Below are positions 21,003 through 22,817 of a stretch of DNA of 32,000 bases, one piece after another (positions within the stretch are counted from its first letter, which is position 1; every line of letters starts with the position of its first letter). The translations under genes were made by a program, and so were the position numbers. This DNA is from Clostridia bacterium (lineage in GTDB: Bacteria; Bacillota; Clostridia; Oscillospirales; CAG-272). The stretch lies in contig JAFQPI010000039.1 in assembly GCA_017411805.1 (NCBI GenBank), positions 24,942 to 56,941 of the forward strand. The letters run 5' to 3'. Below the pieces are notes generated by a model that searched no databases, had not been told where the DNA came from, and saw nothing but the letters and a program-made list of their open reading frames with translations.

Positions 21003-21102
21003 ATATAAAATCAAGCAACCTCAAAAATGGGGTTGCTTGGTCATAAAATTTGATCACTAATGATTTTGAACAGAAAAATATACTTTTATTTGTAGGTTGT
21101 AC

Positions 21103-22122
21103 ATGAATAAGAAACTATTGGCAATATTTTATGCAATATTGGCAGCGGCATTATACGCAATAAACATACCGTTATCAAAGTTACTGTTAAATTATATTGA
21201 TCCGACGATGATGGCATCATATCTGTATTTGGGTGCGGGGATCGGGGTCGGTATCTTGTTTCTGATAACAAAAAACAAAGACAAAGAAGTGTACGAAAAG
21301 ATCACCAAAAAGGACTTGCCAAATGTTTTGGGTATGATCGTATTAGATATAGCGGCACCCATATTGCTTATGTTTGGGTTGCTTGACAGTGCATCCTCCA
21401 ACGCATCCTTGCTGAACAATTTTGAAATCGTCTGCACATCTCTTATTGCACTGTTGGTGTTCAAGGAAGCTATTTCCAAGAGGATGTGGTTTGCTATATC
21501 CCTCATTACAATGTCAAGCTTTTTTCTGTCATTTGAGGATATATCGGCTTTCAGATTCTCTTGGGGAGCAATACTCGTGTTATTGGCGACTCTTTGCTGG
21601 GGGCTTGAAAACAACTGCACAAAGAATCTGTCGAAGAAAAATACTTACCATATAGTATTTCTTAAAGGTATCTTTTCTGGACTTGGCTCATTGATCGTTG
21701 CGTTATGCATGAGAGAAAAGTTTGCAATGATAGAGTACTTTGCATTGGCTCTTCTGCTTGGTTTCGTAGCATACGGACTCAGTATATTCTTTTATATTAA
21801 GGCTCAGGGCATCATCGGAGCTTCCAAAACAAGCGCATATTATGCGGTAGCACCCTTTATCGGTACGTGTTTGTCTTTTGTGATTTTCATGGAAAGGCCG
21901 ACTTTAGCATATTTTCTCGGACTTGCCATAATGATCTTGGGAACTGTCATAGTGGTTATTGACACGTTGGCAAAGAAGCACAGTCATACGCATAAGCATA
22001 CCGTTACGCACAGACATAACGGCAGGACTCATTCTCATATGATCGAACACGAACATTTACACAGCCATTATCTGTCTGAACAAAAGCATCGACACCGTCA
22101 TAATAAAGCCGAGATGTGTTAG
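21103..22122 (+). CDS. DMT/EamA-family transporter with a C-terminal His-rich tail
   Basis: 339 aa from ATG 21103. About 10 predicted TM helices in two EamA-like halves. The last ~48 aa contain 15 His. The gene is clearly more AT-rich than its neighbours and uses TTA, ATA and AAA codons freely. Confidence 0.8.
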   Translation: MNKKLLAIFYAILAAALYAINIPLSKLLLNYIDPTMMASYLYLGAGIGVGILFLITKNKDKEVYEKITKKDLPNVLGMIVLDIAAPILLMFGLLDSASSNASLLNNFEIVCTSLIALLVFKEAISKRMWFAISLITMSSFFLSFEDISAFRFSWGAILVLLATLCWGLENNCTKNLSKKNTYHIVFLKGIFSGLGSLIVALCMREKFAMIEYFALALLLGFVAYGLSIFFYIKAQGIIGASKTSAYYAVAPFIGTCLSFVIFMERPTLAYFLGLAIMILGTVIVVIDTLAKKHSHTHKHTVTHRHNGRTHSHMIEHEHLHSHYLSEQKHRHRHNKAEMC

Positions 22123-22171
22123 AATCACCCGGGCTAAACAATAATAACGGTTCCCATTCGATTATATAAAT

Positions 22172-22298
22172 GAAATTTGCCTCGGGCAAATTTCTACCTT
22201 AACCTTTCGCTGAAAGCGAAAGATTTCACTCGCGCGAAGCGCGAATTTCATCTTGCTTCAGCAAGATTTCACATTTCGCCGGCGGCGAAATATTTCAC
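22172..22298. repeat. Array of five distinct perfect hairpins separated by an ATTTCAY linker
   Basis: Hairpins at 22172-22194 (10 bp), 22204-22222 (8 bp, GAA loop), 22230-22244 (6 bp, GAA loop), 22252-22265 (5 bp) and 22273-22291 (8 bp). Linkers are ATTTCAC 22223-22229, ATTTCAT 22245-22251, ATTTCAC 22266-22272 and ATTTCAC 22292-22298. Confidence 0.8.
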
Positions 22299-22308
22299 CG
22301 CGAAGCCC

Positions 22309-22416
22309 GACGGGATTCAGAACCTATATCTGCGCGCATAATTGGGTAATATAATAAAATGCGGATGTAGCGCGCAGATGATTGGTGTCGCGAGCGACAC
22401 CAAGAGGTTCTTCATC
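22309..22416. ncRNA. Candidate structured element, copy 1 (three-helix junction, outer helix partly degenerate)
   Basis: The first 34 nt, GACGGGATTCAGAACCTATATCTGCGCGCATAAT, are identical to copy 2. P2 is ATCTGCGCGC/GCGCGCAGAT (22328-22337 with 22370-22379). P3 hairpin is 22382-22403. P1 is AGAACC/GGTTCT plus 3 more bp beyond a 2x2 internal loop. Strand and expression are unknown. Confidence 0.5.
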
Positions 22417-22422
22417 AAGAAG

Positions 22423-22531
22423 GACGGGATTCAGAACCTATATCTGCGCGCATAATATGTGCGAAACTGACGTGCGGTGATAGCGCGCAGATTTTAGGTG
22501 TTGCGGAGCAACACCTAGAGGTTCTGAATCC
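22423..22531. ncRNA. Candidate structured element, copy 2 (three-helix junction, intact)
   Basis: P1 is 12 bp, GGATTCAGAACC (22427-22438) with GGTTCTGAATCC (22520-22531). P2 is 10 bp (22442-22451 with 22483-22492). P3 is 10 bp (22495-22504 with 22508-22517). Junctions are 2-3 nt. Strand and expression are unknown. Confidence 0.5.
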
Positions 22532-22541
22532 ATACAGATCT

Positions 22542-22581
22542 AAAAAGATAAGAGGTAGCCGAAGGCTACCTCTTATCTTTT
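22542..22581. terminator. Strong bidirectional intrinsic terminator abutting the tRNA-Thr 3' end
   Basis: 15-bp perfect stem AGATAAGAGGTAGCC-GAA-GGCTACCTCTTATCT (22546-22578), flanked by AAAA(A) and TTT(T). Confidence 0.85.
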
Positions 22582-22657
22582 TGGAGCTGGTGACGGGATT
22601 CGAACCTGCGACCTGCTGATTACGAATCAGCTGCACTACCGGCTGTGCTACACCAGC
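22582..22657 (-). tRNA. tRNA-Thr (anticodon CGU), CCA encoded
   Basis: 76-nt cloverleaf on the minus strand. Acceptor GCTGGTG/CACCAGC, D-arm GCAC/GTGC, anticodon stem GCTGA/TCAGC with loop TTCGTAA, T-loop TTCGAAT, discriminator U, then CCA. The T-stem GCAGG/CCCGT has one G-U pair and one A-C mismatch. Confidence 0.9.
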
Positions 22658-22666
22658 GACTTTATT

Positions 22667-22695
22667 ATTATATCACATATGTATAAATTTTTCAA
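22667..22695 (-). promoter_or_regulatory. Sigma-A promoter for tRNA-Thr
   Basis: Minus strand: TTGAAA (22690-22695), 17 nt, gTGaTATAAT (TATAAT at 22667-22672), about 10 nt upstream of the tRNA 5' end. An A-rich tract on the minus strand (22697-22745) lies upstream and could act as an UP element. Confidence 0.7.
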
Positions 22696-22745
22696 GTCTT
22701 TTTTTGAATTTTTATTTTTTTTCTTTTCTTTTTACGGTTTTTTTC

Positions 22746-22774
22746 TTGACTATTTACAAAATATATAGTATCAT
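22746..22774 (+). promoter_or_regulatory. Sigma-A type promoter for the metallophosphoesterase/rsmA operon
   Basis: TTGACT (22746-22751), 17 nt, TATCAT (22769-22774). Confidence 0.55.
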
Positions 22775-22817
22775 ATATTATGAATAACTAATTTCTATCC
22801 ACACACGGAGAATATAA

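Follow-up and report, generated by a model that had tools for sequence, protein, structure and literature searches.

The window analysed here is a stretch of 32,000 nucleotides of contig JAFQPI010000039.1 from a Clostridia bacterium (assembly GCA_017411805.1). At positions 22172 to 22298, it contains an array of five short hairpins spaced by a conserved heptamer, the linker. The array starts 50 nt past the stop codon (at 22122) of an EamA/DMT gene, and no terminator was found between this stop codon and the array. At its other end, it abuts a displaced copy of the 3' end of tRNA-Thr, followed by two tandem copies of a three-helix element and by a bidirectional terminator at 22542-22582. The tRNA-Thr gene itself is located 285 nt upstream of the array on the same strand, with the terminator and the two three-helix elements in between. 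The array is best explained as a gene-less, one-armed copy of a hairpin-plus-linker intergenic repeat of the Gut-1 type that is abundant in the genus, a reading to which we assign a probability of about 60%.

The window's own genome, G000, is a metagenome-assembled genome (MAG) of 2.46 Mb in 73 contigs, which is 85% complete and broken at array repeats. In the following, other G numbers refer to related genomes, L numbers to loci or metagenome contigs, and C numbers to contigs. The parts of the array are listed below; helices are numbered as in an alignment of 22 copies, and double changes are changes on both sides of a pair in that alignment.

22172-22194, minus strand: terminal hairpin H1, GAAATTTGCC-TCG-GGCAAATTTC, 10 bp (helix 5)
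22195-22203, minus strand: junction after H1, TACCTTAAC, which reads GTTAAGGTA on the minus strand
22204-22222, minus strand: hairpin H2, CTTTCGCT-GAA-AGCGAAAG, 8 bp, GAA loop on the plus strand (helix 4; double changes at three pairs)
22223-22229, minus strand: linker ATTTCAC, which is GTGAAAT on the minus strand
22230-22244, minus strand: hairpin H3, TCGCGC-GAA-GCGCGA, 6 bp, loop C(GAA)G of the DNA mini-hairpin type (helix 3; double changes at four of six pairs)
22245-22251, minus strand: linker ATTTCAT, which is ATGAAAT on the minus strand
22252-22265, minus strand: hairpin H4, CTTGC-TTCA-GCAAG, 5 bp (or 5-7 bp), 4-nt loop
22266-22272, minus strand: linker ATTTCAC
22273-22291, minus strand: hairpin H5, ATTTCGCC-GGC-GGCGAAAT, 8 bp (helix 1; double changes at five of eight pairs)
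22292-22298, minus strand: linker ATTTCAC, which comes first when the array is read on the Rfam strand
22299-22308, minus strand: degenerate leading unit, junction to the displaced tRNA-Thr-like 3' end

The initial annotation had described five short perfect hairpins, whose stems measure 10, 8, 6, 5 and 8 bp, and the motif ATTTCAY directly after the last four of them. The sequence, in which the hairpins occupy 22172-22291, bears out both statements. A sixth, degenerate unit had been proposed as well; it does hold GCGAAGC (22300-22306), but it represents the junction of the leading GCGAAGC mini-hairpin of the array with the displaced tRNA end. When folded as DNA in ViennaRNA, all five hairpins are recovered on both strands. 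When folded as RNA, the minus strand keeps four of them and the plus strand only some. The z-scores of the folds range from -4.7 to -6.2, and none of 200 shuffled sequences was as stable.

Read on the strand that carries GTGAAAT, H1 is the conserved 3' end of the subfamily to which the window array belongs. Its arms hold part of a forward linker, GAAAT, together with ATTTCA, a reverse linker. The latter is the single reverse linker of the array, which consists of one arm only. Helix 5 is 98.2% paired, and its closing pair is CG in 13 copies and UA in eight. The AAGG junction next to H1 also terminates the sister arrays with AGTTAA linkers that are discussed below.

Gut-1 membership and dispersal of the arrays

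On the minus strand, positions 22218-22300 match the full model (1-77) of the Rfam family Gut-1 (RF01706) with 51.6 bits and E = 1.4e-7 in Infernal. With a gathering score of 50 bits for this family, the window array qualifies as Gut-1 under the rule that Rfam itself applies. The Rfam strand is opposite to the one described in the initial annotation. The family is characterized by at least three hairpins that are parted by UGAAAU linkers and have covarying stems; the window array presents five hairpins and four linkers of the sequence GTGAAAT or ATGAAAT. A search of Rfam at permissive E-values over 22050-22800 returned only tRNA, Gut-1 and chance miRNA-like matches on the terminator palindrome.

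Gut-1 has been in Rfam since 2010 without a function, a host organism or a genomic context. It was described as a covarying motif, probably a non-coding RNA, in human-gut metagenome sequences with no sequenced organism (Weinberg et al., 2010; PMC2864571), and nothing on its function was found in the literature searched. The arrays studied here resemble the published motif in their consecutive short hairpins with covarying stems, their (G)UGAAAU joints and their gut-bacterial habitat. Whereas the motif was published without function, copy number or context (PMC2864571), these arrays are multi-copy and occur on both strands, combine five hairpins with a GTTAAGG junction and a terminal hairpin, and in their complete forms adjoin a PF05635 gene. 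Named hosts can now be supplied, i.e., Acutalibacteraceae and Oscillospiraceae-type gut and rumen Clostridia with up to ~70 copies per genome, together with a full-length architecture behind tRNA genes and PF05635 as a candidate partner. In the literature searched, no mention was found of DNA-type loops in Gut-1 arrays, of their location behind tRNA genes or of their link with PF05635.

Paralogues with ~80% identity to the window array are present on contigs C11, C17 and C71 of G000, and copies with 83-90% identity are found at many loci in relatives, including at least six in G003. The alignment of 22 copies from eight species defines a subfamily element of ~135 nt, which starts with a linker and continues with four hairpins, the junction GTTAAGGTA and, as terminal hairpin, GAAATTTGCC...GGCAAATTTC. 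In its five-helix structure, 97.6% of the cells are paired, and 14 of the 38 pairs, with 68 cells, have changes on both sides. As controls, none of 500 shuffles reached values as high, and slid alignments were 32-48% paired. These figures support the earlier suggestion that pairing is kept while the stems drift and the linker stays fixed.

The linker can switch as a set. In three copies (G003_C27, G006_C365 and G011_C64; loci L197, L198 and L204), all four linkers are GTGATAT and not GTGAAAT, and the hairpins are still homologous to those of the other copies. This concerted switch marks the linker as a specificity element. G006 also carries a PF05635 gene that is flanked by AGTGATATT repeats (L031). 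In G018_C43, the linkers show a mixed GTGAAAT/GTGATAT switch.

A search of the genome and its relatives for hairpin-ATTTCAY arrays, as proposed in the initial annotation, revealed a recurrent, dispersed intergenic family. In G000, 35 Gut-1 matches were found at E <= 1, of which nine exceed the threshold and several are located at contig ends. A scan for at least three TGAAAT motifs at a spacing of 15-36 nt yielded 15 arrays, versus none in the shuffled genome. With a motif-free scan, which looked for any 6-mer that is repeated at intervals of 15-34 nt and alternates with distinct perfect hairpins, 44 arrays were obtained, again versus none in the shuffled genome. The linker families in G000 are AGTTAA(GAT), with ~30 copies, TGAAAT, GTATGG, AATGATGAT, CGATATAT and GTGATATT. 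With a single exception, the arrays of the TGAAAT and AGTTAA families are intergenic, and other TGAAAT arrays in G000 are two-armed. Only the linker and a GC-loop-GC core are conserved; the stems differ within and between arrays. Arrays account for many contig breaks in the MAGs of this group, which is of use for genome annotation.

The AGTTAA arrays constitute a sister family of ~30 one-armed arrays with the linker GAGTTAAGAT, which end in AGTTTAAGG and an A/T-flanked GC hairpin (e.g., G000 C16:1277-1368, C44:4566-4658 and C31:24978-25051). After the terminal hairpin of many of them, a palindromic block, AAAGTTTGATCAAACTTTTCAAAAGTTTG, of AAAGTTT/AAACTTT heptads is found (e.g., G000 C44:4480-4560, C51:17800-17880 and C61:14640-14720). 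This block may be a second arm of the heptad type.

Of 38 genomes from the genus, 30 contain Gut-1 matches; a single genome may hold as many as 70, and the total runs into the hundreds. Among GTDB species genomes, ~30 of 120 pattern matches were true hairpin arrays, all of them in gut or rumen MAGs and most in Clostridia. These MAGs, from human, ruminant and bird guts, are labelled Acutalibacteraceae, Oscillospiraceae, Ruminococcaceae, Eubacteriales or Clostridia, with a few Bacteroidaceae and Akkermansia. A phage origin was considered and rejected: none of 119 pattern matches in IMG/VR was a true hairpin array, and the single one that passed the filter was a coding tandem repeat.

The array is also subject to turnover at the window locus. 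It is conserved with 95% identity in G005 and with 91% in G022, is down to one hairpin in G006, and is missing from G003, G018 and G001, in which the three-helix element borders on other sequence. At sites that lack the array, the three-helix element has the tRNA-Thr 3' end in reverse complement (GGAGCTGGTGACGGGATTC) in front of it. Contigs with an identical 252-aa neighbouring protein differ in the same way: L183, which equals the window, and L185 and L186 carry the array and L184 does not. In L185 and L186, the stem of H3 has changed from TCGCGC/GCGCGA to CCGCAC/GTGCGG, i.e., at two compensatory pairs. No clean pair of a filled and an empty site could be read when a 19-kb stretch of C31 was compared with five relatives, a region that is full of other multi-copy repeats and rearrangements.

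Complete elements and the PF05635 gene

There is no PF05635 gene within the window locus, and three are present elsewhere in G000. The first is bracketed by an arm with AATGATGAT linkers and its inverse, the second is preceded by a two-armed GTATGG array, and the third, on C73, is bracketed by inverted AAATGCA heptads without hairpins. In the genus, repeated 7-mers are found in one or both flanks at ~26 of 30 PF05635 loci, and at about nine of these loci the repeat is inverted across the gene.

Seven complete TGAAAT elements were found (L072, L086, L107, L124, L144, L147 and L153). At two further loci, L041 (in G014) and L042 (in G043), an ATTTCA arm is located directly upstream of a PF05635 gene, with only the proximal arm visible at the contig end. 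Five TGAAAT elements lie directly behind a tRNA or tmRNA gene. In a complete element, a tRNA-Arg, -Ser, -Gly or -Leu or a tmRNA ending in CCA is followed by an A-tract/hairpin/T-tract terminator, GAAAAAAGC-hairpin-GCTTTTTT. Next come a GTGAAAT arm of two to four hairpins, an inverted ATTTCAY arm of three to four hairpins, usually a sigma-70-type promoter, and the PF05635 gene. In L153 and L041, the promoter is located between the array and the gene. The terminator between tRNA and array has conserved flanks (GAAAAAAGC...GCTTTTTTCAAC) and a variable, covarying stem (G000 C47:130-200, C43, C55, C67 and C27; L072/L124 and L144/L153). Since identical terminators follow different tRNAs or the tmRNA in different MAGs, the terminator apparently moves as a module, either together with the array or next to it.

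The TGAAAT-linked PF05635 proteins, which come from six genomes, group together in a single clade with 97/96 support that includes one long-branch interloper. This clade is separate from PF05635 paralogues of the same genus that have other linkers. The tree agrees with a specificity of the proteins for their linkers; it is not counted as proof, since related genomes share labels and co-inheritance cannot be separated from recognition. At L110, in an Ignavibacteriota genome, a PF05635 gene is flanked by five pure GTGAAAT heptads. Its product falls outside the Clostridial TGAAAT clade, on a long branch whose placement is unreliable. The 115-aa L041 protein scores 90.4 bits on PF05635, and its closest solved relative is the uncharacterised PDB entry 2RLD, which contains five chains. 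Over 38 genomes, the numbers of Gut-1 matches and PF05635 genes correlate with a Spearman rho of 0.84, the genomes being related so that p-values overstate the association. The median number of Gut-1 matches is 0 in the 12 genomes without PF05635 and ~12 in the 26 genomes with it.

PF05635, a family of four-helix-bundle proteins, includes the 23S rRNA intervening-sequence (IVS) protein and Avd of the diversity-generating retroelements (reviewed in PMC10053308), and the partner gene of the complete Gut-1 elements is a member of this family. The likeness extends to the IVS open reading frames (ORFs), which are also bracketed by inverted repeats. In contrast to those systems, however, no reverse transcriptase, template repeat or rRNA context is found here, and no such gene lies beside the window array. 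In the FLSHclust CRISPR survey, the abbreviations explained in a figure legend include '23S rRNA IVP' among the proteins with CRISPR-association scores (PMC10910872). Going by this entry, repeat arrays beside PF05635 genes might be what the CRISPR-array finder picked up in that survey.

Folded DNA, RNA and alternative explanations

The base pairs of the arrays bear on whether they act as DNA or as RNA. The arrays of G000 contain 513 Watson-Crick pairs versus two G.U and two A.C, and 38 arrays from other genomes contain 530 versus three and six. Together, 1043 Watson-Crick pairs stand against five G.U and eight A.C, and G.U is not favoured on either strand. Structured RNA usually shows several per cent G.U. 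The loops are asymmetric as well: 153 of 258 (59%) are of the type GNA or GNNA on the ATTTCA strand, versus seven of 258 on the linker-forward strand. Those on the ATTTCA strand are almost always closed by C:G, as in C(GAA)G, C(GCA)G, C(GCAA)G and C(GTAA)G, and the plus strand of the window contains GCGAAGC twice, at 22234-22240 and 22300-22306. DNA mini-hairpins of the sequences GCGNAGC and GCGNNAGC are far more stable than their RNA counterparts and need the C:G closing pair (PMC13037366; PMC3201870). In known systems, d(GCGNAGC) and d(GCGNNAGC) are single-strand replication or priming signals (PMC13037366), and 59% of the array loops are like them. These signals are single sites in phage or plasmid origins, whereas the arrays are present in dozens of chromosomal copies with a conserved linker. 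Furthermore, complete arrays are located after a terminator and, in several cases, before the promoter of the PF05635 gene, a place where one would look for a DNA site and not for a segment of a transcript. Considering that G.U pairs are so rare, that the ATTTCA strand has C(GNA)G loops and that complete arrays are placed in this way, a role as folded DNA appears somewhat better than an even bet over a role as RNA, as far as can be judged from sequence. Compared with a free sRNA, folded DNA or a part in protein binding is the favoured role.

How such arrays would work can be outlined as follows. The heptamer linkers would be a recognition motif, most likely for an oligomeric PF05635 protein, and the hairpins would be spacers of free sequence, which have to fold out in order to bring the linkers next to one another. 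This folding would more likely take place in single-stranded or extruded DNA than in a dedicated RNA. The pure heptad arrays, i.e., AAATGCA in C73 of G000 and the five GTGAAAT heptads in L110, would be the same thing without spacers. A PF05635 oligomer that reads three to five heptamers would explain why the linker is conserved, why the spacers are paired yet free in sequence, why linkers switch in concert and why paralogues have their own linkers. In its widest form, the proposal is that Gut-1-type arrays are the cis element of an undescribed genetic module, in which a ring-forming, Avd-like PF05635 protein reads linkers that are made adjacent by mini-hairpin fold-out in single-stranded or supercoiled DNA. 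This module would settle behind tRNA genes, shed gene-less arrays and shift its specificity by concerted linker switches, such as that from GTGAAAT to GTGATAT, and the window array would be a trans-bound or retired landing pad. We put this module forward tentatively, as a possibility. If the DNA reading is true, an orphan RNA family and an orphan protein family would explain each other. The window copy itself is probably a non-autonomous remnant or a retired copy. Its transcription is probably only passive, as part of the 3' untranslated region of the EamA/DMT gene up to the terminator at 22542-22582.

Several observations weigh against this interpretation. Neither terminal inverted repeats nor a target-site duplication, the marks of a MITE, were seen at the aligned boundaries of the 22 copies, and the comparison of a filled (G022) with an empty (G003) site points to sequence replacement and not to a clean insertion with target duplication. 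No PF05635 gene of the TGAAAT clade was found in the 85% complete assembly of G000, which nevertheless has ~45 arrays, and G050, G011 and G017 have 4-12 Gut-1 matches and no PF05635 gene. Thus, arrays persist, or perhaps even function, in the absence of the protein. Among the 30 PF05635 loci of the genus, no gene with an AGTTAA linker was found. The correspondence between proteins and linkers could, on the sequences alone, also result from co-inheritance of adjacent DNA instead of recognition. Moreover, Rfam's curators judged Gut-1 to be an RNA (PMC2864571) and assigned it the type Gene; sRNA. At one orthologous pair, the change proceeds via G.U on the minus strand, with G-C in G000, G.U in G022 and A-U in G005, and very short stems may exclude G.U in RNA, too. 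Finally, 22 of 30 AGTTAA arrays begin 0-64 nt past the stop codon of a co-oriented gene, as predicted by an RNA role in the 3' untranslated region (3'-UTR). The remaining eight abut the start of a divergent gene. These context counts are approximate, since they come from a crude codon-usage caller that missed the EamA/DMT gene.

The position of AGTTAA arrays behind co-oriented genes is in keeping with a cis-acting RNA, i.e., with arrays forming, like REP or BOX, a hairpin block in the 3'-UTR that protects against 3' exonucleases or aids termination, the link with PF05635 being incidental. In agreement with this idea, many AGTTAA arrays have an A/T-flanked GC hairpin at their end, with T-rich sequence after it, and the window array follows the EamA/DMT stop codon closely with no terminator in between. 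However, the EamA/DMT transcript would bear the strand opposite to that which AGTTAA arrays present to their upstream genes, and the arrays at divergent gene starts do not fit. Moreover, a nuclease barrier needs neither a conserved 7-nt linker nor a concerted switch to GTGATAT, and the tight adjacency of PF05635 is left unexplained. Altogether, we consider a cis-acting RNA unlikely. About as unlikely, or slightly more so, is a small non-coding RNA (sRNA) made from the GTGAAAT strand, for example by read-through from tRNA-Thr, and acting in trans, perhaps as a UGAAAU sponge for an RNA-binding protein. The Rfam type and the rating by Weinberg et al. as a covarying RNA speak for it, as do the strong covariation, the orthologous pair that passes through G.U and the fact that complete arrays immediately follow tRNA genes, which are highly transcribed. 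Against an sRNA speak the dozens of copies that each genome holds, oriented either way with respect to the adjacent genes, and the strong terminator that separates tRNA and array, both here and in the complete elements. In addition, G.U is no more common than A.C, the stable loop type occurs only on the opposite strand, and the copy is absent from a strain that encodes the identical neighbouring protein.

The comparison with sponge sRNAs had been made in the initial annotation, which also noted that the motif is not the GGA of CsrA. The latter is correct: there are no GGA motifs, and the linker is ATTTCAY/GTGAAAT. Like CsrB and RsmZ, the array presents repeated short single-stranded motifs among hairpins. 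Unlike them, it exists in dozens of copies and does not form one dedicated gene that has a promoter and a terminator of its own. With the pattern found genome-wide, and present or absent among strains, the idea of a unique sponge sRNA was abandoned. What is kept of it, in a different form, is the notion of repeated binding motifs among hairpins, given that complete copies lie beside a PF05635 gene. The accompanying expectation of a RAYT gene in case of a genome-wide family was not confirmed: PF01797 gave no match in the 85% complete G000, and six control genomes did match. The array is not a CsrB-type sponge but a dispersed repeat that resembles REP and BOX and fails the defining features of REP/RAYT systems.

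A family of the REP/BIME type that is mobilised by a RAYT (Y1 HUH) transposase is therefore dropped as very improbable, given the lack of a RAYT or Y1 transposase match in the 85% complete assembly of G000. The likeness to REP, BIME and REPIN sequences lies in short palindromic intergenic units that are dispersed, often clustered and of alternating orientation, frequently as inverted pairs, and the hairpins here are indeed DNA-like. Of the comparison with REP/BIME clusters in the initial annotation, the dispersed intergenic character stands; no RAYT gene was found in G000, and the stems hold no conserved REP sequence. REPs own a conserved palindrome with a 5' GTAG and a RAYT gene, whereas the stems of the arrays vary and the 7-nt linker is conserved, which is the reverse, and the associated gene is PF05635. 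The BOX elements of Streptococcus pneumoniae are modular boxA-boxB(n)-boxC intergenic repeats with conserved units of ~45-60 nt and a predicted stable fold. They share with the arrays the modular intergenic organization, the variable number of internal units and a defined end module, but have no sequence relation to them. A link of BOX units with a PF05635 gene is not known.

The window array could also be a neutral relic, i.e., decaying selfish DNA without a present function at this locus. This would agree with its single arm, the absence of a partner gene from the assembly, its variability among strains and its location in a recombination-prone spacer with a strain-variable EamA/DMT gene. 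On the other hand, all five stems are still perfect, and the orthologues with 91-95% identity have changed in loops only or in stems by compensation. Perfect stems and compensatory changes point to continuing constraint, or to gene conversion from active copies, and a mere relic is about as improbable as the sRNA.

Neighbouring features at the locus

On the minus strand near the array, the sole promoter-like site lies at the 3' end of the array and is directed away from it. This site, TTGCCC-17-TATAAT (10 of 12 positions; 22189-22161, minus strand), is made up by the terminal hairpin and flanking DNA and runs antisense into the 3' end of the EamA/DMT gene. Its -10 box belongs to the flanking DNA, and other copies have not conserved it. 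A small ORF on the minus strand after AAGG, starting with TTG at 22189, was considered and rejected, because copies differ by an indel and the frame is not kept among them.

The three-helix element next to the array is ~110 nt long and present in two tandem copies at 22309-22531; it is also found in G000 at C26:37146-37437. It can be folded into a three-way junction with P1 GGATTCAGAACC/GGTTCTGAATCC, P2 ATCTGCGCGC/GCGCGCAGAT and a P3 of ~9 bp. P2 and P3 covary across 13 copies, and strains hold one or two copies of the element. No Rfam match to it was obtained over 22050-22800 at permissive E-values. The initial annotation had considered that this element and the array might be one composite locus. 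The data do not support this idea: L184, G003, G018 and G001 have the three-helix element but not the array, and the array occurs without the three-helix element at more than 20 other loci. Since each is found without the other, they are separate modules. At its start, the three-helix element carries the tRNA-Thr 3' end in reverse complement; it looks as though a unit of terminator and element had integrated into the tRNA gene.

The EamA/DMT gene (21097-22122) on the other side of the array is present in G000, G005 and L183, and G022, G003, L184 and L185 have a different gene or none at this position. It was scored as non-native by the codon-usage caller and may be a recent insertion.

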